Shown here: piece after piece, positions 8,902 through 25,914 of the stretch
Layout: every line of letters begins with the position of its first letter
Position numbering within the stretch: the stretch's first letter is position 1
Virus record (IMG/VR): IMGVR_UViG_3300028025_002046
Coordinates: 30,589-94,588 of that record
DNA from: a virus
Strand: one strand, 5' to 3'
Length of the DNA stretch: 64,000 nucleotides
Notes under the pieces: model-generated
Databases searched by the model: none
What the model was told of the DNA's origin: nothing
The model's input: only the letters and a program-made list of their open reading frames with translations
Translations under genes and position numbers: made by a program

Positions 8902-8994
8902 GATACTTTTGCTTCAATCAAGACAGGCTTTGCCTGTTGTATACCGTTCGATTTTATGTTATACTATAGTTCTACATATTTAGGAGAGAAATAT

Positions 8995-9171: not shown

Positions 9172-9521
9172 TGCTTAAAAAGATTGGTTGGCTTATTTTG
9201 TTATCTTTATGCTTATTTAGCTTTCAAGCACTGTTCTTTGCTGTCATTTCTACGTTATTTCTGTAATACCTGGCAAAATAGCAAATCTGAAAAAATTTTT
9301 ATTTTCCATATTGGAGAAAATCTGAATATTTTGAATAAGTGTATGATACATACCCTAGGGTAGTGCTACCAGGGTTTCGTAGTGAGCACACATCCCCCTA
9401 CTACCAGCTAAATACAGAGCTTCGATCTGTTATCAATTCGTTACACAAATAAGCGTGTTTGTGCTTGCTAAATGTCTGCCTACTACCCTATAATTAATAC
9501 ATAAAGAGAAAAGGAAAACAA

Positions 9522-9695
9522 ATGACTAAGGTTCTATCGGTTCTATCACTAATCGCTCACGCAGTAGCATTTCTAGTTGCTGTCTATGTAATGGTTCTAG
9601 ACAAAGAAGGTAACTATGGTTATCTACTTGTTTTGGCAACCTTCGTTACCCTGCCAGTAACCATAATTCTAGTAGCAAACAAACTAAGCAAGTAA
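9522..9695 (+). CDS. 57-aa two-TM membrane protein
   Basis: AAGGA RBS; MTKVLSVLSLIAHAVAFLVAVYVMVL...YLLVLATFVTLPVTIILVANKLSK. Confidence 0.65.
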   Translation: MTKVLSVLSLIAHAVAFLVAVYVMVLDKEGNYGYLLVLATFVTLPVTIILVANKLSK

Positions 9696-9705
9696 AGGAA
9701 AACAA

Positions 9706-9831
9706 ATGAGCAATTTCAAACTATACCTATACACCGTTGATGGCGATGCCGTTACCTCAATGATTCACGTTGATGATGTTGAAGAATTCTTGCTTGAACA
9801 TCCTGATGCCGTGCTAACTAACCGTAGATAG
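9706..9831 (+). CDS. 41-aa acidic microprotein (paralog of 10906-11043)
   Basis: AAGGA RBS; YTVDGDAV...EEFLLEHPDAV. Confidence 0.7.
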   Translation: MSNFKLYLYTVDGDAVTSMIHVDDVEEFLLEHPDAVLTNRR

Positions 9832-9861
9832 TTATCCACAGGATAGCAATAGTTATCCACA
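9832..9861 (+). promoter_or_regulatory. DnaA box pair (9832, 9853)
   Basis: TTATCCACA twice, 21-bp period. Confidence 0.75.
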
Positions 9862-9943
9862 GGCGGTACCCAAAAATAACGGTTTGGTAACGAAACGTGT
9901 TATGTGTCGTTATAATGTCTGCCTATGTGCTTATAATTGACCT

Positions 9944-10093
9944 ATGAACGAAATCAAATGTGTAGTATGTGAAGACAAAGCAACCGAACTAGCCCTTGAT
10001 GTTTGGGGAGCAGACTTAGAGATTTGCGACAAGCAAGAGTGCTATGACGAAATTGCTGATGGTGATTGGATACACACAAAGCCACTGGCATAA
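9944..10093 (+). CDS. 49-aa Zn-finger-like microprotein, leaderless
   Basis: CVVC...CDKQEC; ATG 7 nt after TATAAT. Confidence 0.65.
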   Translation: MNEIKCVVCEDKATELALDVWGADLEICDKQECYDEIADGDWIHTKPLA

Positions 10094-10140
10094 TGTCTGC
10101 CCTATCAACTAAACTAATAACATCTAACAAAGGAAACTAA

Positions 10141-10263
10141 ATGGCTAACTACTCAGTATCAAGATTCAACGAACTAATGCGTATCGCTAAGAGTGATGAG
10201 TATATGAGTGAGAGTGAGTTCAATGAACTAATGGCTATCTTCAAGATTCGTGGGTATCACTAA
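10141..10263 (+). CDS. 40-aa microprotein (paralog of 12218-12340)
   Basis: MANYSVSRFNELMRIAKSDEYMSESEFNELMAIFKIRGYH; AAGGA RBS. Confidence 0.75.
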   Translation: MANYSVSRFNELMRIAKSDEYMSESEFNELMAIFKIRGYH

Positions 10264-10462
10264 TGGTTGAATGGATCATCTACCTATTTGGCTTATGGCT
10301 AATAGCGGTTATTCTTACTCAGTAAACTAATCGGCGTGTCGTCTTGACAAATGCCCCCGAAAGGGGGTACCAAAAATAACGGTTTGATAACGACACTACG
10401 ATATGACTTGCATAATGTCTGACCCTGTGCTTATAATTGAGGTATAAAGAAAGAGGTTCCAA

Positions 10463-10744
10463 ATGACTTACTACAACTACCGCCAAAACAACTCGGGTGG
10501 CTCGTTCTCTGACCCTGCCCTAAATGTTGTCGTCAAGGCAAATAGCCCTGCTGAGGCAGATGCGATTGCCATCACTAAGGGTATCTACTTTGACCCTGAG
10601 TTTGAGATTGATTGCGATTGCTGTGGTAACCGCTGGTATCCTGCTACTGAATACACTGCCTCAGATACCATTCCTGCTGTATCAGATTGGGATTGCCAAT
10701 GGGCTATCTCTGATGGTGTGTTTGCTCAGATAGTTGTTGAGTAG
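10463..10744 (+). CDS. Conserved phage hypothetical protein (QNNSGG motif family)
   Basis: YRQNNSGGSF...VKANSPAEA...GIYFD....DCDCCGNRW. Confidence 0.75.
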   Translation: MTYYNYRQNNSGGSFSDPALNVVVKANSPAEADAIAITKGIYFDPEFEIDCDCCGNRWYPATEYTASDTIPAVSDWDCQWAISDGVFAQIVVE

Positions 10745-10905
10745 GGGAAACCCTACTTGATACACACCTAAAAATGTGGGTACCCAAAAATAACGGTTTG
10801 ATAACGAAGCTTAATAAATGTGTAAAATACGGCGTGTCGCTACCTAAAATGTCATACCCCCTTGCTATGCTTACAGGGTAAGCAAAAAAGAAAAGGAAAT
10901 TGAAA

Positions 10906-11043
10906 ATGAAAAACGAACTAAAGAAGTGGCAACTATTCGAATACACCATTGACGGAGATGCTGTCGTTTCGTCAATCTACTACCTAGACATTGCGGAATT
11001 CCTAAAGGAACACCCTGAAGCAGTGCCAACTAACCACCGCTAA
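10906..11043 (+). CDS. 45-aa microprotein (paralog of 9706-9831)
   Basis: YTIDGDAV...AEFLKEHPEAV. Confidence 0.7.
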   Translation: MKNELKKWQLFEYTIDGDAVVSSIYYLDIAEFLKEHPEAVPTNHR

Positions 11044-11160
11044 AAGAAAAGGAAATTGAAATTGATAACACTAACTTTTGAAACTTGGGAAGAATTTGAT
11101 AACGCTCTAAGCGGTATCACTAGCCTAGTAATCGCTACTAATCCAGACCCTACTAAATAG

Positions 11161-11192
11161 TTATCCACAACTACTTATCCACCTGTGGATAA
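11161..11192. promoter_or_regulatory. DnaA box cluster (11161 +, 11175 + with 1 mismatch, 11184 -)
   Basis: TTATCCACA, TTATCCACC, TGTGGATAA. Confidence 0.7.
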
Positions 11193-11321
11193 CTTTGGTA
11201 CCCAAAAATAACGTTTTGGTAACAAACTTAAAAAGACCTACGATTTACGGCGTGTCGTTCCCTAAAATGTCCTACCCCTATGCTATGCTGAAAGCATAAA
11301 GAAAAAGAAATGAGAAATCAA

Positions 11322-11456
11322 ATGGCAGTAACAATCAAACTAACCCCTAGCGAATCAAACCTATTCAACTGCGAAATCTGTGGCAACCCTGCCAACAAGA
11401 TGAAACTAATGAACAGCGGTTACTGCCAATACACTTGTGCCAGATGTGCCAAGTAA
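11322..11456 (+). CDS. 44-aa zinc-ribbon microprotein (paralog of 12839-12967)
   Basis: LTPSES..FNCEICGNPA...SGYCQYTCARC. Confidence 0.7.
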   Translation: MAVTIKLTPSESNLFNCEICGNPANKMKLMNSGYCQYTCARCAK

Positions 11457-11501
11457 AATGTCATAGCCTACTGATAAACTAAATATATAAACAAAAGGAA
11501 A

Positions 11502-11547
11502 TGAGCCTTAGCAAATAAACGAGTAATCGGTGAGCCTAAGCAAATAA
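11502..11547 (+). ncRNA. Candidate cis-regulatory RNA, copy 1 of a 46-nt element
   Basis: Identical to 13221-13266 except two mutually compensatory changes; lies between promoter 11459 and ORF 11580. Confidence 0.5.
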
Positions 11548-11579
11548 GTTCCACTAACAAAAAAAGAAATGAGAAATAA

Positions 11580-11843
11580 ATGAACATCAACGAAATTCGC
11601 GAACAAGGTATCGGTTCAAACTTCAAGGTTATCAACCAAGCAGACGGATACCAAAAGAATAACCGCCTATGGTTTGGTGAGTGTGTTGAGTGTGGTGAGA
11701 GAGTAACCAATTCAAACCTAAAAGGTGTTTGGGTTCACACAATAATCTTAGAGCGTGACGGCTTGTCTACTAGGTCTAGAGATGTTGATTACTGCCCTAC
11801 CGCTCAAATTCAGGGTAACCTAGTTCAAGAGATTTCAATCTAG
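11580..11843 (+). CDS. Hypothetical protein with CxxC
   Basis: ORF track; downstream of promoter 11459. Confidence 0.65.
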   Translation: MNINEIREQGIGSNFKVINQADGYQKNNRLWFGECVECGERVTNSNLKGVWVHTIILERDGLSTRSRDVDYCPTAQIQGNLVQEISI

Positions 11844-11905
11844 GCAAAAACTTTTTGCGACACGCCAGGGATAACTTGACAAATCGCAAAAATTTTGGTA
11901 CCCGA

Positions 11906-11921
11906 TCGAACACTTGTTCGA
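11906..11921. promoter_or_regulatory. Perfect actinobacterial LexA (SOS) box
   Basis: TCGAAC-ACTT-GTTCGA matches TCGAAC-N4-GTTCGA. Confidence 0.75.
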
Positions 11922-12020
11922 ATGTAACGATTAGGTTACGGAAGCTCAGAAACACCCCTAAATCTAACTAAAATGTCAGACCCCCCTGTTACAATGAATA
12001 CATAAACGAAAGGCAAACTA

Positions 12021-12170
12021 ATGAAAAGAATTCACACAGTAATGGCGTTCCTACCAAACAAGAAGAAGGTTATTGACCTAACCTATGACGCAGACAATTT
12101 TACAGTAGAGCAAGCAATCAAGTCTGTGGAAGACAAGGGCTTGACAGTAATTTCGGTTTACACAAACTAA
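12021..12170 (+). CDS. 49-aa hypothetical microprotein
   Basis: GAAAGG RBS; own promoter 11974. Confidence 0.6.
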   Translation: MKRIHTVMAFLPNKKKVIDLTYDADNFTVEQAIKSVEDKGLTVISVYTN

Positions 12171-12217
12171 AATGTCTGACCCTACTGCTAAAATGAAATC
12201 AAACGAAAGGAAGTCAA

Positions 12218-12340
12218 ATGGCTAACTACAATGTTGCGAGATACAACGAACTAATGAGAATTGCTAAGAGCAACGAATTTATGTCTGAAAGCGAATTCAA
12301 CGAATTGGTTGGAATAATGAAAATTAGGGGATACCACTAA
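12218..12340 (+). CDS. 40-aa microprotein (paralog of 10141-10263)
   Basis: MANYNVARYNELMRIAKSNEFMSESEFNELVGIMKIRGYH, 32/40 identical. Confidence 0.75.
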   Translation: MANYNVARYNELMRIAKSNEFMSESEFNELVGIMKIRGYH

Positions 12341-12411
12341 AATGGAATTCCTATCCCTAGCCCTAATCGCTTTCGCAATCTATCTATTTATCAATCAGTA
12401 AAGGAAATCAA

Positions 12412-12612
12412 ATGTCTGTAACTATCAAGCGTAATGTAATTCTATCGGTTCTAGCAACCATCTTCTTCTTCGTGGCTAAGTCTGGTCTTGATGAAATGGC
12501 TAAGTCTGGTCTTGACGGCTTGGGAATGTTCCCTTTCCTAATCGGTGGCTTTGGCTTTCTAGGCTTCTCTATCGGTCTGGTTATTCGTCTATGGGGGAAT
12601 GAGAAAGAGTAG
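12412..12612 (+). CDS. Small two-TM membrane protein
   Basis: Two hydrophobic segments; internal duplication AKSGLD x2. Confidence 0.6.
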   Translation: MSVTIKRNVILSVLATIFFFVAKSGLDEMAKSGLDGLGMFPFLIGGFGFLGFSIGLVIRLWGNEKE

Positions 12613-12615
12613 GAG

Positions 12616-12645
12616 TTATCCACACCCTACCCCAAGTTATCCACA
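12616..12645 (+). promoter_or_regulatory. DnaA box pair (12616, 12637)
   Basis: TTATCCACA twice, 21-bp period. Confidence 0.75.
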
Positions 12646-12656
12646 GGGGGTACCCC

Positions 12657-12724
12657 CCGAACACTTGTTCGAATTTACGTAGCTTACGTAGCTCCCCCCC
12701 AGCTTTTTTCGAACAAAAGATCGA
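12657..12724. promoter_or_regulatory. Two LexA boxes, 1 mismatch each
   Basis: CCGAACACTTGTTCGA 12657-12672; TCGAACAAAAGATCGA 12709-12724. Confidence 0.65.
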
Positions 12725-12838
12725 ATGTAACGAATTGGTAACAAAATGCGACACACCCCCTAAAAGCCTATAAAAACTAACTAAAATGTCAGACCCCCCT
12801 GCTATGCTTACTATGTAAGCAAAAGAAATGAGAAATAA

Positions 12839-12967
12839 ATGAAATACCTACTAAGCCCAGCCGAATCAGCAAAGTTTCCTTGCGACCTTTGTGGCAAGCC
12901 AGCAACTAACGCCTATGTAATGCGTTCAGGATTCGTTCGTTACAATTGTAATCGCTGTGTGTCGTAA
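12839..12967 (+). CDS. 42-aa zinc-ribbon microprotein
   Basis: LSPAES..FPCDLCGKPA...SGFVRYNCNRC. Confidence 0.7.
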   Translation: MKYLLSPAESAKFPCDLCGKPATNAYVMRSGFVRYNCNRCVS

Positions 12968-13028
12968 CGCTAAAATGTCTTACCCTAATGCTAAAATAAA
13001 TTATCAAACAAAAAGAAAGAGCAACTAA

Positions 13029-13208
13029 ATGCCAAAGCCAAGAATGACCAAAGCCGAAAAAGCAATCGTGAAAGCGGTGAACGCAATTGTGTTCGCAAAT
13101 CCAGAAATCCGTAATGGCGGAAAATTCCTAGACAGAGCCGCTTTCCAAAAGTTGCCAGACCAGACCCAGAAAATCTATCTGGATTTGGTAATCAACAAAA
13201 CATTCTAA
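13029..13208 (+). CDS. 59-aa basic hypothetical protein
   Basis: Manual translation MPKPRMTKAEKAIVK...; own promoter 12976. Confidence 0.6.
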   Translation: MPKPRMTKAEKAIVKAVNAIVFANPEIRNGGKFLDRAAFQKLPDQTQKIYLDLVINKTF

Positions 13209-13220
13209 AACCAAATGGCG

Positions 13221-13266
13221 TGAGCCTGAGCAAATAAACGAGTAATCGGTGAGCCTCAGCAAATAA
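13221..13266 (+). ncRNA. Candidate cis-regulatory RNA, copy 2 of a 46-nt element
   Basis: TGAGCCTGAGCAAATAAACGAGTAATCGGTGAGCCTCAGCAAATAA, intergenic. Confidence 0.5.
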
Positions 13267-13287
13267 AGCCCTAACGAAAGGAAAACT

Positions 13288-13449
13288 ATGACAGCCAAAG
13301 AAAAAATCGAATTGCTTACTCGCAAGCACGAAAGAGGTTTGGTTATCTCTAACCTCTACTCTGCCATTCTCGCCTGTGATGAGGATGCCGATGAATGTGA
13401 TGTTTGTCTAGGCTTGAAATACGCAATTCAGCGGATAGAGAAAATGTAG
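13288..13449 (+). CDS. 53-aa hypothetical protein
   Basis: GAAAGGA RBS; manual translation. Confidence 0.6.
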   Translation: MTAKEKIELLTRKHERGLVISNLYSAILACDEDADECDVCLGLKYAIQRIEKM

Positions 13450-13479
13450 TTATCCACAGGTAACCAAAAGTTATCCACA
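13450..13479 (+). promoter_or_regulatory. DnaA box pair (13450, 13471)
   Basis: TTATCCACA twice, 21-bp period. Confidence 0.75.
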
Positions 13480-13573
13480 GGGCGTACCCACCCCCCTAGA
13501 TCATTTACGTAACCAATTAAATACCCCCCAGATTATTTCCCATAATGTCCGACCCCCTTGTTATACTTATCGT

Positions 13574-13717
13574 ATGAACGATAAGACGACTTGCTACCAC
13601 TGCCAGAAGAACAACACCTACGCTTTGGCTACCCTAAAAAATGGCAATGTTATGCGTGTGTGTAACCTATGCTCATTTTACCTTGACGACCTAATCACCA
13701 ACCTAGTAATTCTCTAA
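13574..13717 (+). CDS. 47-aa Zn-finger microprotein, leaderless
   Basis: CYHC...CNLC; ATG 7 nt after TATACT. Confidence 0.6.
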   Translation: MNDKTTCYHCQKNNTYALATLKNGNVMRVCNLCSFYLDDLITNLVIL

Positions 13718-13881
13718 GAAAGGAAAATCCCTATGGATGACGACTATGTAGAATATGATGAGTGCTATGAAGAGCCAGGTGACTTCTTTTCATAGCACCA
13801 CCCTTCGGGGGGTACCCCCAGCTCCGCTGGGTCGTTTACGTTAAGAAGTATAATGTCTGACCCCCCTGCTATACTTGAGGT

Positions 13882-14073
13882 ATGAATTCACGAAAGGCTA
13901 ACTCTATGACCACTCCTAACCCTAACCCTAATGTCGTTGGCTATGTCTGCGTTTACTGCCAGAAACTCTACCTGCCAGAAGAAACCATCTGCCTAGATTG
14001 TAACGAGTATGACGGAATGGTGGCTCTAACCAAGAACATCTTGGCTATGTTTGCTGACCCTGTTGTTTCATAA
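13882..14073 (+). CDS. Zn-ribbon hypothetical protein
   Basis: CVYC...CLDCNEYDG. Confidence 0.65.
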   Translation: MNSRKANSMTTPNPNPNVVGYVCVYCQKLYLPEETICLDCNEYDGMVALTKNILAMFADPVVS

Positions 14074-14128
14074 TGTCTGTGGCTACTGCTAAACTTACCC
14101 TATAAACCCTATCGAAAGGCTATCCCCT

Positions 14129-14224
14129 ATGTGCGATTGCGAAGACCGTCCTTGCTGTGGCTGCTACTCTATGGCTGACCTATACTCCAACTCTGGAGAC
14201 CCCTATGACCCTAACAACTGGTAG
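14129..14224 (+). CDS. 31-aa Cys-rich micropeptide
   Basis: MCDCEDRPCCGC; GAAAGG RBS; own promoter 14074. Confidence 0.55.
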   Translation: MCDCEDRPCCGCYSMADLYSNSGDPYDPNNW

Positions 14225-14329
14225 GTAACTACCCCCCCTGGGGGGTACCCCCAGATCTAGCTCTTTTACGTTAAGAACTATAATGTCCTACCCCCAATGT
14301 ATAATTGTATTATCAACGAAAGGTAAACT

Positions 14330-14596
14330 ATGTTAGAAATCGCATTTGGAATGAAGCAGGTTCAGAAGAACTCAACCGAGAACCCTATGGTCGCTATGAT
14401 GGCTCTGGAACTGGAAGACACTCGCAACAACCTAAGCGAAGATGAGTTTTTAGAGTTTCTTGCTAAGTTTGCTCTCTCTATCTCTGCTATGGCTATCTCT
14501 CAAACTGTTCAGTTGTGTCTTGATGAAACCACGCAAGATGAGTTGGAGAAAACCATTTTGGAACTAATGGAAATGGAAGATTTAGGTAAGGAGTAA
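14330..14596 (+). CDS. Acidic helical hypothetical protein
   Basis: ORF track; own promoter and RBS. Confidence 0.7.
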   Translation: MLEIAFGMKQVQKNSTENPMVAMMALELEDTRNNLSEDEFLEFLAKFALSISAMAISQTVQLCLDETTQDELEKTILELMEMEDLGKE

Positions 14597-14735
14597 TCTC
14601 CTACCCCCGAAAGGGGGTACGCCCAGCTCCGCAGGGCTGGTTTACGTAGCTAATTAAAAAGCTCCCAAACCTTTTTGCTAAAATGTCAGACCCCCTTGCT
14701 ATAATTGTATTATCAACCAAAAGAAATGAGAAATA

Positions 14736-14936
14736 ATGAACGACACTCCGCTAGTAATCCGCTCTAATGAAGTTGTAAACAACCTACGAGATGAGAAACT
14801 AAACTACGACACCTCCTACGCAAAAGCGTTTGGTGCTTGCTGGGGAGTAATGACCGACGAGCAACGACTAATCGTTTTGGAATACTCGCAACGCCAAGCA
14901 ATAATTATCAACACACTAGGAGAAGAAATAAACTAA
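14736..14936 (+). CDS. Hypothetical protein
   Basis: ORF track; own promoter 14684. Confidence 0.65.
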   Translation: MNDTPLVIRSNEVVNNLRDEKLNYDTSYAKAFGACWGVMTDEQRLIVLEYSQRQAIIINTLGEEIN

Positions 14937-15115
14937 TGATGACACGCAAAGACTATGTAGCAACCGCAGAAATTCTAAATTCTTATGTTCACAATTTAGA
15001 CGCTCCAATTTTTGATTGCCTAGTTCAAGATTTTGTGGCTATGTTCGCAGAAGATAACGACCGCTTTCTAATTGATAAGTTTGAAGACGCTTGTTGGGGA
15101 ACGGCTAGGGAGTAA
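14936..15115 (+). CDS. Conserved phage hypothetical protein (MTRKDY...DNxRF...F..AC family)
   Basis: Start overlaps upstream stop; recognisable motif. Confidence 0.7.
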   Translation: MMTRKDYVATAEILNSYVHNLDAPIFDCLVQDFVAMFAEDNDRFLIDKFEDACWGTARE

Positions 15116-15224
15116 TCCCTGCTCCCCTGGGGGTACGCCCCCACCCCTAGCTCGTTTACGTAACGCATTAAATTTACCCTAGATTTATTCCTAAAATGTC
15201 TTACCCCTGATGTATAATAAAACT

Positions 15225-15395
15225 ATGAAGAAAAAGAAACCACCACTAGGCAAGGTCGCCAACGCTACTCGCAAGGCTCACGCCAAGGAATTGTTCCAGA
15301 GCCTTTTACTCAACAAGCACTTAGTCGTTACCCCTGCCAACCGCAAGGGTTCACGACAGAGCAACAACCAAAAAGCAATTAGGGAGAGTTACTAA
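15225..15395 (+). CDS. Basic leaderless microprotein
   Basis: ATG 7 nt after TATAAT; K/R rich. Confidence 0.6.
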   Translation: MKKKKPPLGKVANATRKAHAKELFQSLLLNKHLVVTPANRKGSRQSNNQKAIRESY

Positions 15396-15700
15396 TGGAT
15401 GAACTATTTATTGTAATCAACGACAAGGGATACGCTGTTGAGATGTGTCTTACCGAGCAAGAAGCGTTAGAGTGGATTGCTAAATTTGGTAACAAAAACT
15501 ATTCTATCGATTTGGATGTGGTGTGCTAATGAAAGTTTATGTAGTTATTGAGACTTGTTGTATGCACTTTTGTGGAGTATACAAGGACAAGGCTGAGGCT
15601 GATGCCTATGCCGAAGAGAATGACTATTCCGTCTATGAGTATGACCTTTAGTGTCATACCCTCACGCTATAATTGAAACACCCTAACGAAAGAGAAACTA

Positions 15701-16168
15701 ATGAAAGCAATTATCGAATCTAACTGTGTTTGTGAACCAGACGAAGAAAACCCTGAAAGCCTAAATTGCTACGGTGACTGCTGGGAATGGCAGAAAGAAG
15801 ACGTTCAGTGGATTATCGGTGAATGGGCAACTAAGAATGAAGTAGCCGAAGGACAGCCAATTCTAATTACTGGCACAAACATGAACTGGAACCATGTTTC
15901 AGGCTGGGCAACCGCAACACCAGAAACCATTCTCGATAAACTAACCTTGAACGGTGATTTTAGTTTAGAGTTTGACTTTGACCCTGATGAAAATACTTTC
16001 AATGTTGTTCGTCGTTCTCACGATGAAATGGGAGCGTTGTTTACTTTTGTAATCATGGAGCCATGCAACCAGTGTGGAGTAGGAATTCCACGAGAGATTT
16101 ATAACGAAGAACTAGGCATGTGTCTTGAATGTTCAAATGCTTACTTCAACCATGAGGATGAAGAATGA
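15701..16168 (+). CDS. Acidic hypothetical protein with C-terminal Zn finger
   Basis: ORF track; promoter 15652. Confidence 0.7.
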   Translation: MKAIIESNCVCEPDEENPESLNCYGDCWEWQKEDVQWIIGEWATKNEVAEGQPILITGTNMNWNHVSGWATATPETILDKLTLNGDFSLEFDFDPDENTFNVVRRSHDEMGALFTFVIMEPCNQCGVGIPREIYNEELGMCLECSNAYFNHEDEE

Positions 16169-16324
16169 TAGAGTTTGGAGTTATCCTAATAGCGATAGGT
16201 TTGGTTATCCTACTGAATCAGTAGATACCCCCCGAAAGGGGGTACGCCCTATCGATCAGCTGCTTTACGTAGCCATAATGTCAGACCCTAAATGTATAAT
16301 GGTATTATCAAAGAAAAGGAAACT

Positions 16325-17044
16325 ATGTCACTCATTCGCTCTAAAGACCGTAAAGTTGCTAACCAAGTAAACAAGGCTGGCAGTCAGGCTTCAATGGCTA
16401 ACACTTTTGGATTACCTAGTGGCAAGGCTTTTTCCTGCCCTGGGGCTACCTCGGTTTGTGAGACTATTTGTTACGCTGGCAAACTTGAAAAGGTATTCAA
16501 GGGTGTTCGCAATGTTTTGGTATCTAACTATGAGCAACTACTGGCAACCGATACTCTAGGCATGATTGCTTTGATTGACGAAATGATTCAAGACTTCAAG
16601 CAGGAATGTGAAAAGCGTAATGCCGATAAGTTATTCCGTATTCACTGGGACGGAGACTTCTTTAGCGAGGACTACACTAGAGCATGGAATTTTGTTATCC
16701 GCCTAAACCCTGATGTTCAATTCTGGGCTTACACTCGTTCAGACTTTGCTGTTCCAATTCTAATTGACATTCCTAACCTAGCCCTATACTTCTCTGCTGA
16801 TTCTGCTAACAAGACTTTGGCATGGGAACTAAAGCGTAAGTATGGTGTGAAACTTGCTTACCTCGCCAAAGACTTTGCTACAGGCAAGAGTGACTTCAAT
16901 GAGCAACAGGAAAAGTCTGCTGTTCCCTGCCCTGAAAACAACAAGAAGATTCCAATGATTAGCGAAAAGGGCAGTGCTTGCGTGATGTGTTCGCAGTGTG
17001 TGTTTGCTCGCAATGACATTCTGTTTAGTGCTACTAAAAAGTAG
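16325..17044 (+). CDS. Phage Gp88-like (radical-SAM-related) protein
   Basis: FGLP.G..FSCPGAT..C...CYA; FRIHWDGDFF; FWAYTR; CP...C..C..C. Confidence 0.75.
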   Translation: MSLIRSKDRKVANQVNKAGSQASMANTFGLPSGKAFSCPGATSVCETICYAGKLEKVFKGVRNVLVSNYEQLLATDTLGMIALIDEMIQDFKQECEKRNADKLFRIHWDGDFFSEDYTRAWNFVIRLNPDVQFWAYTRSDFAVPILIDIPNLALYFSADSANKTLAWELKRKYGVKLAYLAKDFATGKSDFNEQQEKSAVPCPENNKKIPMISEKGSACVMCSQCVFARNDILFSATKK

Positions 17045-17264
17045 TGCTAGGCAGGGTACCCCCCACCCCATAGCTGCTTTACGTTACGATGCTAAAATGT
17101 CCTACCCCCCCTGTATAATATATACATAAGCAGGAAACGCAGCCCCCAAACAGAAAAAAATAATTGAACAAGTTTGAAAAATGTGCTTGACAATCTCCTG
17201 CTTATGCCTTATAATAGATACATAAGCAAAAATGTTTATGTAAACCGAATAGAAAGAAGCAAAA

Positions 17265-17411
17265 ATGACCGAAGTTACTGTTGGCTCACAGTTCGCAACC
17301 CAGAAGTCTGGCGTTGTTGGTATTGTTCAGGAAGTTGTAATCAACAAGAACGGCTCTCAGCGTGTTCGCCTTGATGTAAACGGAACTGACCGCTGGACTA
17401 CTGTAAAGTAA
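17265..17411 (+). CDS. 48-aa small beta-barrel (SH3-like) protein
   Basis: MTEVTVGSQFATQKSGVVGIVQEV...RVRLDVNGTDRWTTVK. Confidence 0.6.
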   Translation: MTEVTVGSQFATQKSGVVGIVQEVVINKNGSQRVRLDVNGTDRWTTVK

Positions 17412-17417
17412 TTCACC

Positions 17418-18012: not shown

Positions 18013-18017
18013 GATAA

Positions 18018-18126
18018 GCACCTAAGCAAGTGTCTAAAAGGCTTAGTAAACACCTTACTCTCTGTTGCTCGCAAGGGTATTCATAATAAGGTTTTTATAC
18101 ACCTAAGCAAGTGTCTAAACTGCTTA
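18018..18126 (+). ncRNA. Two H-type pseudoknot motif copies (18018-18046, 18099-18126)
   Basis: gcac-ctaagcaa-gtgt-ctaaaag-gcttag and acac-c-taagca-a-gtgt-ctaaac-tgctta. Confidence 0.6.
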
Positions 18127-18127
18127 C

Positions 18128-18174
18128 AATCCCCCTGTGAAGTATCTGGATAGATACTGGTTAGCAGGGGGATT
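18128..18174 (+). terminator. Long GC-rich hairpin
   Basis: aatccccctg...cagggggatt enclosing agtatct/agatact. Confidence 0.5.
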
Positions 18175-18281
18175 CTTGCTACCCCAGGAGCTGGGGGTAC
18201 CCCCCCTACCCACTAAGCCCTTTACGTTATAATGTCTTACCCCCCTGTTATAATTGACCTATCACAAAGAAAAGGAAAACT

Positions 18282-18509
18282 ATGAAACACGAAACAACCC
18301 TTTACACCTACACCAACAAAGCCTATGTTACTGAGTATGGCGATTTCGCAGCCGAAGGCTCTTGCCTTACTTTTGATTCTTCACTACTCTCTAACTCACA
18401 ATGGCAGTTAGTAGATGAGTTGCCAGATTCACAAAAGTTTGAGTATGTCTTGGCTATCCTTGACGGAGAAGAAGATGTTATTCGTGAGATTGAAAGCGAG
18501 AATAAATAA
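18282..18509 (+). CDS. Acidic hypothetical protein
   Basis: ORF track; promoter 18233. Confidence 0.7.
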   Translation: MKHETTLYTYTNKAYVTEYGDFAAEGSCLTFDSSLLSNSQWQLVDELPDSQKFEYVLAILDGEEDVIREIESENK

Positions 18510-18970
18510 TGTTTGATGATGTAATCGCTATGGACATAGTGGAACAACTAACCGAAGAACAACTAGACCAACTAATCGCAATACTAGAAGGAGCAGGTTA
18601 CTAATGTTTATTCCAAACTTAGCAATACTACTAGACGAAATCAAACAGGCAGAGAAATCTTCCAAACTTGAAGGTGTTGTGTCTTACGCTAGTGGCTATG
18701 AAGATGGCTTGCGTATGGCATTAGACATTTTGGAAGGAAGGGTAGAGTAATGGAAAAGATTACTGTTAGTCTTAGGTTTGAATACTACCCTGAAGAAGAC
18801 CACGCAGAATTGTTTGAAGACATGACTGAAGATGAAATGATTCGCTATGCTAAAGAAATGGCTTGTGAAGATATAGTCAGTGGAGATGTTTGGGAATGGC
18901 TAGAAGTTTCGGTAGAGTAAAATGTCAGACCCTACCAGTATAATTAGACTATCAACGAAAGGAAACACTA

Positions 18971-19462
18971 ATGGGAACTCGTAATCTAACTAAGGTAATT
19001 GACAAAGACGGAGTAACTAAGGTTGCTCAATACGGACAATGGGACGGCTACCCTAGCGGACAGGGTATCAACGCTCTTCTACACGCCTACAATCACAGGC
19101 AGATTGAAAGCAAGTTGCCTAGACTACACTTTCTAACCGACAGCGAGATTGAGAACATCAACTCACTACTATCGGCAAGCGGACAGCCAATTAGCGAAGT
19201 CTATCCTACCCTATCTCGTGATACCTGTGCGGACATTCTAGGCTATGTCGCTTGGTCTAATGATGTATTCCTAGTGGATAGTAGCGACTTTGAGAATGAC
19301 GAATTGTTTTGTGAAGCAGTTTACACGCTAGACTTTCAAAAGAAAAAGTTTATCTCTACTTATGGTGGACACACCTTAGAGTTTGAGTTGGACGACCTAC
19401 CAGAACCGAAAGAGTTTTTGGCAGATTGGGCGTATGAACTAAATCCTGGTGTGGTGGGCTAA
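18971..19462 (+). CDS. Conserved phage hypothetical protein (MGTR...YxxWDGYP family)
   Basis: Recognisable motif; own promoter 18923. Confidence 0.75.
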   Translation: MGTRNLTKVIDKDGVTKVAQYGQWDGYPSGQGINALLHAYNHRQIESKLPRLHFLTDSEIENINSLLSASGQPISEVYPTLSRDTCADILGYVAWSNDVFLVDSSDFENDELFCEAVYTLDFQKKKFISTYGGHTLEFELDDLPEPKEFLADWAYELNPGVVG

Positions 19463-19559
19463 CGCTCACCCCTAGGGGGTACCGCCCAAGATCCAAGCTG
19501 TTTACGACTATAATGTCAGACCCCCAATGTATAATGGAACTATCAACGAAAGGGAAACA

Positions 19560-19721
19560 ATGAGCGAGTATGTAGCAGTAGACATTTATGACCGTATGGA
19601 GGCTAACGCCAACGACCTTGGTGGTAGCGTTGAGGAAGACCTAGCAGAGATTCTTGCGTCTGGTGACCTAAGTGCTTTTGAAGACTACTTTGGCGACACA
19701 GACCCATTTGAATTCCTATAA
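19560..19721 (+). CDS. Very acidic microprotein
   Basis: RBS before ATG 19560; D/E rich. Confidence 0.6.
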   Translation: MSEYVAVDIYDRMEANANDLGGSVEEDLAEILASGDLSAFEDYFGDTDPFEFL

Positions 19722-19767
19722 TGTCCTACCCCACCTGTATAATAGAAACATCAACGAAAGGTAAAGA

Positions 19768-20247
19768 ATGAACGAGAATGAAAACACAGATAACATTGGC
19801 AATTTTGGTGAGTATAATGCTGTTCCTGTTGAACCAATAGTCCACCCTTCCCTAGCAAAATTGTATGACGAGATTGCTGACCTAAAAGAAAAGTTGGTTC
19901 ACTCAACTACCATTGCGAGCGAAGCACAAACTCGTTTGCGTGAACAGCAGAGCGAGTATCGTGAGAACGAGGGCAAACTTCAAGACATTCTAATTGAAGC
20001 ACTTGGAGATGAAGAAATTGACAAAGATGTAGCAGACAAGATTGCCGAACTCTATGGTCTTGACCTACGCAAGGTATTCTCTATCAACATTCAGGTTGTT
20101 GTAAATGTTGAAGTGTCTGCTCCTGTTGGAACTGACCCTAGCGACATTGTAGATAATGTTGGCTTTGGCTATGGCGGTATCACCTACTCTGGTATTGGTG
20201 ATTTGGAAAGCGACCATTGGGAAATTGACGACTGGGAAGAAGTGTAG
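19768..20247 (+). CDS. Acidic coiled-coil hypothetical protein
   Basis: ORF track; promoter 19722. Confidence 0.7.
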   Translation: MNENENTDNIGNFGEYNAVPVEPIVHPSLAKLYDEIADLKEKLVHSTTIASEAQTRLREQQSEYRENEGKLQDILIEALGDEEIDKDVADKIAELYGLDLRKVFSINIQVVVNVEVSAPVGTDPSDIVDNVGFGYGGITYSGIGDLESDHWEIDDWEEV

Positions 20248-20266
20248 GGTAAACCTTTCCCCTACC

Positions 20267-20293
20267 AGTGCTGGGTATCACTATAAACTACCC
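20267..20293 (+). ncRNA. H-type pseudoknot motif copy
   Basis: agtg-c-tgggta-t-cact-ataaac-taccc. Confidence 0.6.
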
Positions 20294-20457
20294 CCACATG
20301 GGCGTACCCCTCCCTGCCCCAAGATCCATTTACGATAGCTTTAAGAAATCTCCAGAAAATTCCCCAAAACTTTTTGCTAAATAGTATTGACAAACAGAGT
20401 GTTTGCCTGTATAATTAGACTATACACAAATCAACCACTAACAGAAAGAGAACCCCT

Positions 20458-21474
20458 ATGGCTCACGAACTAGAACAAGGCGAGAATGGCGAAGTTGCTT
20501 TTGCTTCGCTACGCCAACCTGCTTGGCACAATCTAGGCACTGTCTTTGAAGAGCAGGTCAATACAGCAGAGATGCTGAAACTTGCTCACCTTGATAATTG
20601 GAATGTTCGTCTTGAAGATGTAACCATTCCAGAAAACTTTGAGAGCGACAAAAACTATTCGTTCGTTACTCGCACTAACCCTTTTGATAACACCAAGAAT
20701 GATGTTCTCGGCGTTGTCGGTGAGCGTTATGTTCCCCTACAAAACGAAGACCTATTTTCGTTTGGCGACAACCTGCTAGACGGCGGTGGTCGTTGGGAAA
20801 CCGCTGGCTCAATCAAGGGTGGTCGTCAGGTGTTCGGCTCTATCGCTTTGGCTGATAGCATTACCCTAGACCCTAATGGTCGTGCTGATAAGATTGATAA
20901 CTATCTTCTAATCAACACTTCTCACGACGGAAGCATTGCTATTCAGGCAAGTATCACGCCTGTTCGTGTTGTATGTGCTAACACTCTCAACCTTGCTCTA
21001 TCTTCATTCAAGGGCAAGAAAGCAGCGAAGCAGACTTTCAAAATCCGCCACACTTCAACTGCCGAAGGTAAAATCGCAGTTGCTCGTGAAGCACTAGGTC
21101 TTGCCAAGACTTACCTAGACGAGTTTTCTCTTATGGCTAACGCTATGATTGAAAAGGAAATCACTAAGGCTGACTTTGATAAGATTGTCGCTCTTGCTTA
21201 CCCTGCTCCTGAAAAAGACGCTAAGGGTTCATTCAAGAAATACGACAGCAAGATTGACCTGCTAAACGACATTTATGTTGGGCAATTCAATGACACCATT
21301 TCTGGAACTGCTTGGGGAGCATACAACGCTCTAACCGAACGCCTAGACTGGTATCGCTCTGCTCGTGGTGGAAGCAACGAGAGTATCTACGCTTCTGCTT
21401 CTGGCTTTGACCCTGTAATCAACGCAGAGAAGAACCGCTTGATGAAGATTGTTCAACAGGTTGTAATGGCGTAA
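20458..21474 (+). CDS. DUF932 / TIGR03299 phage-plasmid-like protein
   Basis: AWHNLG; LGVVGERYVPLQNE; ETAGSIKGG; SHDGS; TPVRVVCANTL; RHT; GTAWGAYNALTE. Confidence 0.85.
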   Translation: MAHELEQGENGEVAFASLRQPAWHNLGTVFEEQVNTAEMLKLAHLDNWNVRLEDVTIPENFESDKNYSFVTRTNPFDNTKNDVLGVVGERYVPLQNEDLFSFGDNLLDGGGRWETAGSIKGGRQVFGSIALADSITLDPNGRADKIDNYLLINTSHDGSIAIQASITPVRVVCANTLNLALSSFKGKKAAKQTFKIRHTSTAEGKIAVAREALGLAKTYLDEFSLMANAMIEKEITKADFDKIVALAYPAPEKDAKGSFKKYDSKIDLLNDIYVGQFNDTISGTAWGAYNALTERLDWYRSARGGSNESIYASASGFDPVINAEKNRLMKIVQQVVMA

Positions 21475-21621
21475 GCCATTCTCCCTTGCTCCTGGCAGTA
21501 AAATGTCAGGGGTATAGGGGGTACCCAGCTATCGATCTTATTTACGACACACCTTACGATATCCCTATAATGTCATACCCTACCCTTATAATAGATACAT
21601 AACCCGAAGAAAGGAAAAGCA

Positions 21622-21807
21622 ATGCCTAAATACCAAATAGAAATGATGATTGAATTCTCTGGTGAGATTGAAGCAGACAACGAAGAACACGCAGAACAAC
21701 TTGCTTGGACGAGTTGGGGAGATACAATGGATAGCCCTATCGTTTATGACGGTGTTTATTCAATTGAAGTAGAAGCAGTAGACGAAGAAGAAGACGAGGA
21801 AGACTAA
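21622..21807 (+). CDS. Acidic microprotein (EA-x3-A family)
   Basis: EIEADNEEHAEQLA. Confidence 0.65.
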   Translation: MPKYQIEMMIEFSGEIEADNEEHAEQLAWTSWGDTMDSPIVYDGVYSIEVEAVDEEEDEED

Positions 21808-22052
21808 TGGGAGCAAGAATAAATCCAGACGACATTCAGTTTCGTAAAGACGCTGACTACTATATGGACCCTATCGGTCTAGCAGTCATCCTTATTGAAG
21901 AGATGATTGACTGGGGTATTGAACGAGACCGAATGATTGTTGAGAAACTACCAGAAGAACACATTTGGTATTTTGATGGTCTACTCCGTCGAACAGAAAC
22001 TATCCTAGACAGACTAGGTGTAGAGAACATTCCAGTAGTAGGTGATTGCTAA
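21807..22052 (+). CDS. Hypothetical protein
   Basis: ORF track; coupled start/stop. Confidence 0.6.
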   Translation: MGARINPDDIQFRKDADYYMDPIGLAVILIEEMIDWGIERDRMIVEKLPEEHIWYFDGLLRRTETILDRLGVENIPVVGDC

Positions 22053-22151
22053 TGAGTGATTGTATTGAGAATGATAACGGACGTTGTATGTTCTGTGGTG
22101 CTATAATGTCTGACCCTACCGCTATAATTGAAGCCTAACCAAAGGAGAACA

Positions 22152-23245: not shown

Positions 23246-23418
23246 CATCCACCCGAAAGGGTGGGTACCCCCAGTTAACATAATATAGTTAAACTAAATA
23301 ATTAATTACGAAAGCGGATTAAGATCCCCGAAATCTTTTCCCAGAAATTTAGCTTTTGCTATTGACAAATGAGGCGTTATGCCTTATACTTGTAATACAA
23401 CCCAAAAGAAAGAGAACA

Positions 23419-23931
23419 ATGCATACCCTACAATACATTGCAATTCAATCAGAAGATAAAGAGAGTGCAGCCAACACAGTAAAGAACCTACTAGAAGAAG
23501 AACTAAATCCTGGTTCGTCTTGGTATGACTGGTTCGTTGTAGGTGGAGGTCGCTTTGCTCCTAATCCAGAAGACCAGTATGATGACACCCATGAGACTGT
23601 TATCTCCTATGCAGATACCCCTGACATTTTTGATGAGAAAGTTGGAGACTGTATGAAATCCAAAGGTCGTGAGTATCAGGAACTCTATACAGATTACAAA
23701 CTAAATAAAGAAGAAATAGAGAAGACCTTTGAGGCTTGGAATGGCAACATGGAATTCTCTATGGCTCTCTATCCACTACGGAAGATGTTGGACATTGTTC
23801 AAGGACATTGGGATTACACATCTCGTGTATACGACATTACCAATTGGTCTACCAATACCCACCACATGAACAGAAGTCTAGCAGACGGAAACAAAAATTG
23901 GTTCCTTGTGCCTGTTGACTTTCACTTCTAA
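23419..23931 (+). CDS. Conserved phage hypothetical protein (WxDW..vGG.R ... vDxH family)
   Basis: WYDWFVVGGGRF; C-terminal VPVDFHF; sigma-A promoter 23362. Confidence 0.75.
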   Translation: MHTLQYIAIQSEDKESAANTVKNLLEEELNPGSSWYDWFVVGGGRFAPNPEDQYDDTHETVISYADTPDIFDEKVGDCMKSKGREYQELYTDYKLNKEEIEKTFEAWNGNMEFSMALYPLRKMLDIVQGHWDYTSRVYDITNWSTNTHHMNRSLADGNKNWFLVPVDFHF

Positions 23932-23970
23932 ACCTGCTATACTTATACTCCCACAAACAAAGGAAACGAA

Positions 23971-24171
23971 ATGGCTACATTTGAAGTCACTGTGACTTAT
24001 CACTTCGACACAACTTACGAAGTCGAAGCAGACAACTATGAACACGCAGAATACAAAGCCCTAGAAGAAGCAACCGAATGGAAGCCTTACTCATCTGAAA
24101 AGGGATACACCGAAGACTGGTATCAGGTAGAAGTTGAGCCAGCCCTGATTAGCGGAGAGATTGAAGACTAA
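23971..24171 (+). CDS. Acidic microprotein (EA-x3-A family)
   Basis: YEVEADNYEHAEYKA. Confidence 0.65.
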   Translation: MATFEVTVTYHFDTTYEVEADNYEHAEYKALEEATEWKPYSSEKGYTEDWYQVEVEPALISGEIED

Positions 24172-24596
24172 TGATATTAGTAGACAATTGGGTAGACACC
24201 TACAAGCCAATCAAGAATGAGAATAACGACTGGGGTGGAACCTACTCTGCCTTTGAAACCTATGGAACAGAACTAGACTTCGTATGGTCTAAGCCTAACA
24301 ATCTTGTTTGGACTGAGATTGACGGTGACGAGGGTAGTTACATTATCGCTGGCAAGCACATTGTAAATCGCCTACAATACTTTGTATGCGAAGTGCCTTG
24401 GGAAGATGAGAACCTTATGGTCGCTATCTCTGTTGAGCAAGAGTGTGAACTCTGTGGCGGAACAGGCGAGCAACCACTTGGAGAAGATGAAGTAGAAGAC
24501 TGCGACACCTGTGGTGGTCGTGGCTACTGGCAGGTCTATCCAGACACTATGGAAGAACTAGAAGCACTAATCGGGAAAGAGAGAGCAAATGGCTAA
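24171..24596 (+). CDS. Hypothetical protein with DnaJ-type CxxCxGxG zinc finger
   Basis: CELCGGTG...CDTCGGRG. Confidence 0.7.
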   Translation: MILVDNWVDTYKPIKNENNDWGGTYSAFETYGTELDFVWSKPNNLVWTEIDGDEGSYIIAGKHIVNRLQYFVCEVPWEDENLMVAISVEQECELCGGTGEQPLGEDEVEDCDTCGGRGYWQVYPDTMEELEALIGKERANG

Positions 24597-25280
24597 ATAC
24601 GTCAAGCACCTAAGCAACGAAGAACTAATGGCAAGAATAGCAGATGACCTAGTTAGTATGCATAATGATACTGGTATTCATCTTGGATACTGGGAGACGG
24701 CTATGGAACTTGTAGAACGTTTTTACCACGTAAATGTTGAAGTAATCGTAGGAGAGAAGAAGAACTATGAAAGCGTTTGAGAACCTTGCCTTTGACAGGG
24801 AGAACTTTGAGAGTTGGGTAGATGAAAGTCTACAGACCAGGCTTACTGATGAGCAGTGGGAGCGTGTCAAGGATGAACTTGACGGACGTGTAGAGAACTA
24901 CTTGGACCAGATGATTTACGACGTTGTGCTAGAGTTTAGGGAGGGAGCCTTCGATGAATAAGGACTGGGACCTAAACATCTTCTTCAAAGAAGTATGGGA
25001 TGAGAACGTAGAAGAGTATGTGCTTGAAGATGTGTTGACTATCAATCCTGTAGTCTACATGTATGACAGTAATGGTTCTAATAATCATTATTCAGATATC
25101 ATCTGGACCACTACCTTTGCAGAAGCACGTTACCTACGGAGCCAGTATCCAGAGAAAGAATACGGCTACGACTGGACTGACACCATTAGCAACTTCATAG
25201 AGATTGCACCACCTAGGCTGAAGTCTCTAGCCATGGCATTACCCAGTGCCTACGATTACAAGATAGACTTGGTGGGTTGA
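24589..25280 (+). CDS. Three overlapping acidic hypothetical ORFs (24589-24780, 24767-24961, 24954-25280)
   Basis: ORF track; translational coupling. Confidence 0.6.
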
Positions 25281-25413
25281 GACTACTCCTCATCAGGATA
25301 CGCTAAGGGGTTGGCGTATTCGGTGGTAGGTTGAGAGACGTTATTTCCTTTCACTCTTGACCTACCACCACAATTTTGGTATAATAGAAGTTACAACTAA
25401 ATACGGAGAACAA

Positions 25414-25608
25414 ATGACAAACGACGAAAACAAAGTAGCAGACAAGATTGGAAAACTTGTATCAGACCTAACATTAGACATTGAGCAGGTAGGACTTTAC
25501 ATTGGACGACAACCGAATGTAATTCTAAATAGATTAGAAATCATTACCGAGACAGCACGAGAAGAAAAGGAAGACCTACATTTGACCATTGACAATGATT
25601 GGCGGTAG
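25414..25608 (+). CDS. Hypothetical protein
   Basis: GGAG RBS; promoter 25357. Confidence 0.65.
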   Translation: MTNDENKVADKIGKLVSDLTLDIEQVGLYIGRQPNVILNRLEIITETAREEKEDLHLTIDNDWR

Positions 25609-25623
25609 GTGTATAATAGAACT

Positions 25624-25914
25624 ATGAACGAAACCACTATAGATAACAAATGTAACATCCTAGCAGAACTATGGATGGACTACCGAGATGATGTAAACTT
25701 TGATGACTTCATCAACTACGCTGACTTAGGTTTGCCATTGGCATACGCTATCAGTAATGAGATAGTCAAACTTACTCCACAGGCAGAGAAGTTTATCACG
25801 GAGGCTTTTGATTTGCTAGTAGCAAGTATGGGTCTAGAAGATACAGGCTTTGAAACTCTGGATGACATTTTCATGGAAGGCGATTTAGAAGCTTTCGAAG
25901 ATCCAGAAGAGTAA
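25624..25914 (+). CDS. Acidic hypothetical protein, leaderless
   Basis: ATG 7 nt after TATAAT; last gene of plus-strand block. Confidence 0.7.
   Translation: MNETTIDNKCNILAELWMDYRDDVNFDDFINYADLGLPLAYAISNEIVKLTPQAEKFITEAFDLLVASMGLEDTGFETLDDIFMEGDLEAFEDPEE

Follow-up and report, generated by a model that had tools for sequence, protein, structure and literature searches.

Why are short palindromes missing from one block of genes in a phage genome, and why do some of them survive in the gaps between those genes? The question is raised by a 64,000-nucleotide stretch of viral DNA, hereafter the window, that corresponds to bases 30589-94588 of a 94,588-bp IMG/VR virus record (IMGVR_UViG_3300028025_002046; genome label G000) rated 88% complete. 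A preliminary description of the sequence had reported that AGCT, GATC and GTAC are nearly absent from the open reading frames between about 9.43 and 25.88 kb and recur in the junctions between genes. It had proposed that the block is first-injected DNA under selection to avoid restriction sites, as in the first-step-transfer region of phage T5. In this work we show that the block, an array of small genes (Table 1), is purged of many more palindromes than these three, and that the purge is written in synonymous codons. Restriction is very probably the agent that selected it.

Palindromes in the genes of the block

We called 52 plus-strand genes in the block (12.3 kb) by a codon-usage and ribosome-binding-site score. 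The expectation for coding DNA was taken from 300 synonymous-codon shuffles, and that for spacers from 500 dinucleotide-preserving shuffles of 33 spacers. Between 9430 and 25880 there are 18 AGCT, 10 GATC and 18 GTAC sites, where base composition would give 60.2 of each; the remaining window holds 162, 120 and 47. For the block genes the shuffles predict 63.6±6.5 AGCT, 45.9±5.6 GATC and 34.4±4.5 GTAC, and we observe 1, 1 and 0 (0.02, 0.02 and 0 of expectation; none of the 300 shuffles is as low). The near absence of the three words from open reading frames is thus borne out by the codon shuffles, and is stronger than had been claimed. The sole coding AGCT (25890) and GATC (25900) fall in the final 25 nt of the last gene (25624-25914), past the end of the block as first drawn, and the called genes up to 25880 contain none of the three words. 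A GATC at 10274, described earlier as the only one inside an open reading frame, does exist but lies 11 nt past the stop of the called gene 10141-10263. The statement that the three words are common elsewhere in the window fails for GTAC, which occurs at 0.99 per kb outside the block and at 0.30 of expectation in other genes. For this word the block and the remainder differ by the position of the sites, not by their amount.

How broad is the purge? The block genes are short of 14 of the 16 palindromic tetramers, with only AATT and CTAG near normal; the codon shuffles give z = -6 to -10. Observed and expected counts are 0 and 56 for TTAA, 9 and 45 for ACGT, 11 and 51 for TCGA, 10 and 40 for TGCA, 10 and 43 for ATAT, 18 and 43 for TATA, and 16 and 31 for CATG, while each of the four GC-only tetramers is found 0-1 times. 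When all 256 tetramers are ranked by depletion, the top five and 13 of the 19 most depleted are palindromes, the others being Shine-Dalgarno-like. One-letter variants of each palindrome stand at 0.5-1.8 of expectation, mostly above 1, and no trinucleotide is missing from the block genes. The constraint hence acts on the word in its double-stranded form, and word avoidance at the level of the mRNA is ruled out. An artefact of composition or codon usage is ruled out by the synonymous-codon shuffles and by the contrast with the other genes of the same genome. The purge has been achieved through synonymous codon choice. Many lineages make heavy use of CTAG (up to 11 per kb), as though codon choices barred by forbidden words had shifted to permitted ones.

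Some interrupted palindromes of 5 bp are also depleted, and in the block only: GASTC (0 vs 12.5), GANTC, TCNGA, CCNGG, GCNGC, GGNCC and ACNGT. Type II enzymes are known for these words (REBASE prototypes). Five others, TTNAA, ATNAT, CANTG, TGNCA and AGNCT, for which we know of no enzyme, are undepleted (0.92-1.26).

Avoidance in this genome comes in three layers. The first is genome-wide and absolute: CCGG, GGCC and GCGC do not occur in the 94.6 kb and CGCG occurs once, against 49-105 of each predicted for genes; six hexamers (TCATGA, GACGTC, GCATGC, GTCGAC, CTCGAG and GCTAGC) are likewise missing throughout. The second, which is partial across the genome and total in the block genes, comprises AGCT, GATC, GTAC, ACGT and TCGA. 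The third is confined to the block and comprises TTAA, TGCA, ATAT and CATG, which stand at 0.95-1.03 of expectation in other genes and at 0-0.5 inside. The borders are sharp, with normal density ending at the first promoter (9469) and returning in non-coding DNA past the last gene. The plus-strand genes left of the border (7696-9363) have a normal palindrome content.

Is the same pattern found in relatives? With the DUF932 protein of the array we retrieved 25 related IMG/VR loci (76-95% identity), and the same step in palindrome density is seen in every one of them that reaches beyond the array. The words themselves turn over. Some relatives lack AGCT or GATC genome-wide (both in G004, AGCT in G001, GATC in G002), G003 has no CATG, the G002 array is purged of AATT, ATAT escapes the purge in L028/L029, and L022/L024/L030 use TGCA freely. 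Of the 25 loci, L023 alone contains any CCGG or CGCG. The DUF932 gene (1 kb) offers 24 full-length orthologues, i.e. 23 from related loci and that of the window. AGCT, GATC and TTAA are missing from all 24; TGCA is missing from 20 and present 16-18 times, far above chance, in three. The TGCA-rich orthologues are L022:819-1829, L024:1595-2605 and L030:10001-11011. Such all-or-none, lineage-specific turnover at synonymous sites matches the prediction of changing restriction systems.

Linkers, borders and proteins of the array

Where, then, do the surviving sites lie? The spacers upstream of the promoters, 2.0 kb in all, contain 15 AGCT, 15 GTAC and 8 GATC sites, compared with 1, 0 and 1 in 12.2 kb of coding DNA and none of the three in 1.4 kb of promoters and 5′ untranslated regions. 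These counts confirm the reported persistence of the words in the junctions, and the three junction strings that had been quoted (14244-14262, 16241-16261 and 21520-21537) match the sequence exactly. Block-specific depletion and junction enrichment both hold on counting, so the central claim of the preliminary description stands. Measured against shuffled spacers, AGCT is enriched 2.3-fold (18 vs 7.7±2.6; 0 of 500 shuffles reach the count). GATC (10 vs 5.0; 13 of 500) and GTAC (18 vs 12.7; 35 of 500) are moderately enriched, as are ACGT and TCGA. The linkers share the depletion of TTAA, ATAT, TGCA, CATG and the GC-only words.

A typical junction runs from the stop codon through a G+C hairpin (e.g. 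CCCCCGAAAGGGGG), TAC-CCCC, GATC and/or AGCT, and TTTACGT to a variable spacer, TAWAATGTC, TGnTATAAT, AAAGGAAA and ATG, and the block contains about 30 hairpin-promoter modules. AGCT and GATC sit in a stretch of about 23 nt from the terminator hairpin to the TTTACGT box. In RNA folds GTAC forms the loop (apex) or the 3′ stem edge of the G5-TA-C5 terminator hairpin. A hairpin without a spacer must hold a 4-bp palindrome at its centre. Every GTAC of the block reads S-GTAC-S, 13 of them as GGTACC (the other 78 kb hold 2 GGTACC), and in 12 of 18 junctions the distance from GTAC to TTACG is 21-26 nt. A pair of DnaA boxes similar to that in Table 1 is found at 9829-9872 and at 12613-12656, making three junctions in total, and again at 26468-26495 in the right border. 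The 21-nt hairpin of the linker at 16229-16321 is repeated identically at 14604-14624.

The promoters are nearly confined to the array, which holds 27 of the 30 plus-strand matches in the genome to AWTGTC-N12-14-TAnnnT, and all 16 of the 16 with a perfect TATAAT. From 9469 to 22150 (+) about 27 promoters share TAWAATGTC-N-ACCCC-N-TGnTATAAT, with TGTC 12-14 nt upstream of TAnnnT and no -35 element.

Table 1. Positions of the array, its borders and selected genes and linkers in the window
Positions	Strand	Feature	Basis or remark
9430-25914	+	Early cassette array (putative timing) of ~52 small genes, mostly ORFans, many very acidic; transcribed DNA purged of short palindromes	Gene calls, shuffles, promoter matches
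9364-9468	+	Left border: AGCT at 9406 and 9418, GATC at 9424, directly upstream of the first promoter (9469-9510)	
13447-13490	+	Perfect DnaA box pair (TTATCCACA) replacing the hairpin directly before GTAC	
13793-13842	+	Linker: GGGGGGTACCCCC, then a second hairpin containing AGCT, TTTACGT	
14226-14326	+	Typical linker and promoter: hairpin CCCCCCCTGGGGGG-TAC-CCCC, GATC, AGCT, TTTACGT, TATAATGTC (-26 element), TGTATAAT (-10), ribosome-binding site	
16229-16321	+	Linker and promoter: CCCCCGAAAGGGGGTACGCCC hairpin, GATCAGCT, TTTACGT, promoter	
16325-17044	+	GP88-family gene (Pfam PF17338)	Second array gene common at nucleotide level to ~9 relatives
19460-19508	+	Linker: hairpin, GGGGGTACC, GATC, AGCT, TTTACGA	
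20458-21474	+	DUF932 gene	Present in each of the 25 related loci retrieved with it
21505-21613	+	Linker and promoter 3′ of the DUF932 gene: GGGGGTACC, AGCT, GATC, TTTACGA, promoter	
25915-26531	.	Right border, non-coding; the array (+) and the replication/metabolism genes (-) converge; normal palindrome density returns	

The linker is itself variable between lineages. Its word is GGGGGTACCCCC here, TTTTTGCGC(AAAAA) in L012/L018, GGAGCGCTCC in L016 and GGCC in L030, and relatives without any AGCT or GATC retain the same array architecture. Nucleotide homology across lineages is unit-sized: it stops at the stop codon and resumes just past the palindrome cluster, which points to a hairpin-palindrome linker that is homogenised within a genome and replaced across genomes. 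Logan contigs from other samples show deletions and re-orderings of cassettes. Their joints lie in linkers (13481 to 11197, at a shared GGTAC, in two samples; 16243 to 14622 in another sample; 10349 to 11201) and in promoter repeats (9919 to 10847 and 11483 to 14719).

The right border (about 600 bp) is AT-rich and carries six ATTACGA...TTTCCCC repeats and two DnaA boxes; no sequence homology to the T5 iss was found in it. At 25980-26440 each of six ATTACGA copies is followed 10-20 nt later by TTTTCCCCA(T/A)AT, and both boxes recur in linkers, here and in the relatives. An iteron-type origin is one possible identity of these repeats, a regulator array another. The contig ends of relatives were considered as a clue to the genome terminus and rejected: seven stop within the right-hand part of the block or shortly beyond it, in repeats or genes and not at one homologous point.

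What do the genes of the array encode? Among the 30 largest block proteins, 27 have no PHROGs family and three match only families of unknown function, two of these being the matches of the DUF932 and GP88 proteins. Of these proteins, 20 small ones yielded a single match, again of unknown function. A block protein has a sub-threshold match to a DnaJ zinc finger. The T5 pre-early genes A1, A2 and dmp were not found among the 30 largest proteins (PHROGs and Pfam). As for DUF932, there is no PDB relative by sequence, the Atlas holds only DUF932 clusters and the literature yielded nothing functional; an AlphaFold model built with 14 close orthologues has a mean pLDDT of 43.5. Many block proteins have an isoelectric point of about 4.1 and a net charge down to -25. 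Small proteins without a family, with charges of -20 to -25 and up to 34% Asp+Glu, are encoded at 21622-21807, 25624-25914, 19768-20247, 15701-16168 and 24171-24596; their charge density presumably resembles that of DNA-mimic anti-restriction proteins such as Ocr.

The surroundings of the array point to the kind of virus. Outside 7.7-25.9 kb of the window (+), all genes lie on the minus strand. To the left of the array, on the minus strand, are collagen-like fibre proteins, and to the right, on the same strand, are ribonucleotide reductase, terminase, DnaE, DnaB, ThyX and glycosyltransferases. The genome has a G+C content of 42%. A megablast search of the block against GenBank phages gave no match. 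The closest matches of both the DnaE-type polymerase (55% identity) and the terminase (50%, Streptomyces phage Wakanda) come from Streptomyces siphoviruses of the Stanwilliamsviridae, WhiB is encoded in 5 of the 5 genomes of the group that we examined, and near-identical DNA is contained in freshwater, aquatic and subsurface metagenomes. On the grounds of WhiB, habitat and nearest relatives, the phage is taken to be lytic and to infect a freshwater actinobacterium. Two large proteins with collagen-like repeats (1289 and 379 aa; 627-5635, minus strand) match many tail-fibre PHROGs. Contig depth is lowest there in a source-like run, which suggests strain-variable fibres. Directly left of the array, 7696-8145 (+) encodes an Endonuclease VII family protein (PF02945) that is absent in the four related genomes compared and is probably a mobile homing-type nuclease.

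Probable restriction avoidance and its rivals

Which agent would erase palindromes from genes in this way? The palindrome specificity, the codon-level implementation and the lineage-specific word lists lead us to restriction avoidance, the sole reading that joins all three. That part of the earlier interpretation is well supported, and we regard restriction as very probably the selective agent. By analogy with T5/BF23 and T7-like phages, for which such confinement to early DNA has been demonstrated by experiment, we lean towards viewing the array as first-exposed, immediate-early DNA. A literal T5-like first entry, resting on the same analogy, is doubtful.

We propose that the block would be an immediate-early host-takeover array of about 30 self-contained units that the host RNA polymerase would transcribe, each with a promoter, one or a few small genes and a terminator hairpin. 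Exposed to host restriction, it would have to stay intact and be expressed before any anti-restriction action of the phage. On this proposal its transcribed DNA has been rewritten by synonymous codons to avoid 4- and 5-bp Type II palindromes; the other 78 kb avoid only the GC-only tetramers and a few hexamers. The anti-restriction functions would reside among the acidic ORFan proteins of the block, with the remaining genome protected afterwards. The linkers serve as recombination points for the gain, loss and reshuffling of cassettes. We infer the early timing, the selective role of restriction, the anti-restriction genes and the physical first entry, the last above all.

Several observations weigh against this account. 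What is recorded is a linear contig from a metagenome, and G002, a complete relative, forms a circle through a 127-nt overlap; if the genome were permuted by headful packaging, there would be no fixed part of the DNA to enter first. That said, fixed ends seem plausible given the 50% identity of the terminase to that of Wakanda (NC_070785.1), whose genome carries an exact terminal repeat of 1773 bp. The depleted words also include ATAT and TATA, and we know of no enzyme that cuts either. A known anti-restriction protein or a homologue of T5 A1 or A2 is absent among the block proteins scanned. Above all, the AGCT, GTAC and GATC sites still in the linkers, AGCT being enriched there, are odd if the whole molecule must escape. 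In two relatives a word that is otherwise excluded from the genome, GCGC, is likewise a linker word, with 12 of 12 sites in the array of G003 (89.8 kb) and 15 of 18 in that of G004. Purging genes while leaving constrained regulatory DNA is no contradiction in itself, because every removed site multiplies the chance of escape. However, the linker enrichment of AGCT and the linker-only GCGC of relatives are not explained by simple avoidance.

Could cuts in the linkers be tolerated? Selection might keep each unit uncuttable, so that cuts fall only between units and the early proteins are still made. The sites are indeed restricted to the gaps and absent from promoters, 5′ untranslated regions and genes, and each unit has its own promoter and terminator; even so, a cut molecule normally means a dead infection, and we consider such protection at the level of the unit unlikely. 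That the genome is then rescued, whether from a terminally redundant second copy, through recombining linker repeats or from another genome in a co-infection, is unlikely to a similar degree; the linker repeats do recombine, but there is no sign of a duplicated block. Contig depth in the block compared with its flanks (110-149 vs 28-43 and 91 in run X1; 28-37 vs 19 and 14 in X2) is a weak hint of a second copy, though contig depth is no copy number and a strain mixture gives the same. A terminal repeat deduced from the higher per-contig depth of the block in these two runs was rejected on that ground, as strain mixtures fit equally, and the depth is not taken as evidence. TTAA, ATAT, TGCA, CATG and the GC-only words are low in the linkers as well, and hence some selection there acts on the molecule. 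In its fullest form the idea would make the array a cut-tolerant expression platform, cleaved only at linkers that hold excluded words, with proteins made from the cleaved copy and breaks that drive shuffling, which we think has a small chance of being right. The same small chance applies to its corollary, that a redundant terminal copy, or annealing of the repeated linkers, restores the genome.

A second alternative is that the linker palindrome is a private signal, i.e. a place where a protein particular to the lineage, from phage or host, binds or cuts (a regulator, a roadblock, a nickase or a recombinase, for example). The rest of the genome would then avoid the word for the sake of uniqueness, and binding would also protect the site against restriction. 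This fits a linker word that is lineage-specific and otherwise excluded (GGTACC, 13 vs 2; GCGC, 12 of 12 and 15 of 18). It also fits the fixed 21-26 nt between GTAC and the TTACG box, and the DnaA-box pairs that replace the hairpin but not GGTAC. Nevertheless, a comparison of the GCGC lineages G003/G004 with the others among five genomes gave no convincing gene that co-varies with the linker word. The 4-bp palindrome is inevitable at the centre of a spacer-less hairpin and so may be a by-product of the terminator, and CCGG, CGCG and GGCC are excluded genome-wide though they are not linker words. We judge both the signal itself and the avoidance of its word for uniqueness to be improbable; a protein may shield the junctions, as had been suggested earlier.

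Could the phage be avoiding a nuclease of its own? Restriction-like enzymes made from the block would degrade host DNA, an idea that has been proposed for T5 A1 (bioRxiv 10.1101/866236). A purge limited to what we take to be the earliest-present DNA would suit it. However, no nuclease family was found among the scanned block proteins, about 14 specificities would be needed, the word lists change quickly between close relatives and the rest of the genome carries sites at normal density, and we hold this explanation to be highly improbable.

The preliminary description had also raised a methylation-dependent switch, in which the clustered GTAC, GATC and AGCT sites are methylase targets that control the early promoters. 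This is the weakest of the rivals and very unlikely: the sites do cluster at a fixed place upstream of promoters, but relatives without AGCT or GATC keep the array architecture, and the suggestion is unsupported, as the DNA methylase families PF00145 (C5), PF01555 (N4/N6) and PF02086 (D12) are absent from the genome and four relatives, in searches that found their controls. The window does encode a 174-aa S-adenosylmethionine (SAM)-methyltransferase-like protein (31948-32472, minus strand, between ThyX and a deoxynucleoside monophosphate kinase) that is absent from the four relatives and would speak for such a switch; it is below Pfam thresholds and matches no DNA-methylase family.

Restriction avoidance, if correct, extends sub-genomic restriction selection on first-working DNA, in an extreme form, to uncultured freshwater actinophages. 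A block-limited palindrome purge is computable, and in phages known only from metagenomes it could be used to find regions with immediate-early or anti-defence functions, and perhaps the end that enters. The lineage-specific lists of avoided words could likewise be a read-out of the restriction systems that each lineage has met. The linkers pose a puzzle of their own: at one fixed intergenic place, otherwise-forbidden words (GCGC in relatives, GGTACC here) are kept and AGCT is enriched.

Comparison with known systems

One precedent is that of T5 and BF23, in which restriction sites matter only in the first-step-transfer region, which holds small host-takeover genes, and the site-bearing rest is insensitive (PMC10644984). 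That region adjoins a long non-coding stretch with repeats, palindromes and DnaA boxes (bioRxiv 10.1101/866236). Here too the sites are depleted in the region and present elsewhere, with TTAA, TGCA, ATAT and CATG at about 1.0 of expectation outside. The analogy with T5 that had been drawn earlier therefore holds for the limits of the purge and the ORFan array with its putative host promoters, and perhaps for the 600-bp border with repeats and DnaA boxes; it does not hold for the pre-early genes, as no homologue of A1, A2 or dmp was found among the 30 largest block proteins. Moreover, the presumed host phylum is Actinobacteria, the purge reaches much further (14 of 16 tetramers, 16 kb) and the residual sites lie in repeated linkers.

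In T7-like Autographiviridae (Murciavirus against the Type I system Mme2I) a motif in the early-injected, hypervariable and anti-defence-rich region decides sensitivity, and motifs in the remaining genome have no bearing on it (PMC12455610). Those cases involve single Type I motifs in podoviruses of about 40 kb with transcription-driven entry, whereas here Type II-like palindromes are purged wholesale in a genome of about 100 kb. In conjugative plasmids, the leading region also enters first, is depleted of restriction targets and encodes anti-defence genes (reviewed in PMC12455610). Plasmid entry differs in being single-stranded, with single-stranded DNA promoters; DUF932 is a family that phages and plasmids have in common.

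Genome-wide avoidance of restriction sites, palindrome-specific and through codon choice, is known in phages (PMC6286503). The absence of CCGG, GGCC and GCGC here is of the same kind, as is that of GATC in Wakanda, which has none in 126.6 kb and has annotated DNA methylases. The main signal here differs in being sub-genomic, a second and longer list that applies to one block only. Wakanda was rejected as a comparator for the block, as it is GATC-free genome-wide but without a block effect and is too distant (DnaE 55% identity).

The linkers recall the PeSLs of T4-type phages, in which a terminator stem-loop and a strong early promoter stand between small non-essential genes of hyperplastic regions, and copies recombine and shuffle those genes (PMC2839356, PMC4122927). 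The features in common are about 30 hairpin-promoter modules, cassette-sized homology and joints inside the modules. The promoter differs (TGTC-N12-14-TAnnnT without a -35 element, which fits Actinobacteria), as do the lineage-specific palindrome cluster and the relationship to siphoviruses, and we regard the linkers as an analogue of PeSLs and not as a member of that class. We know of no partition of restriction sites that has been described for PeSLs. In summary, sub-genomic restriction avoidance and cassettes that shuffle by promoter-terminator modules are both known; what is new here is that the two are combined, how broad the purge is, that the setting is an actinophage and that the linkers hold excluded words.

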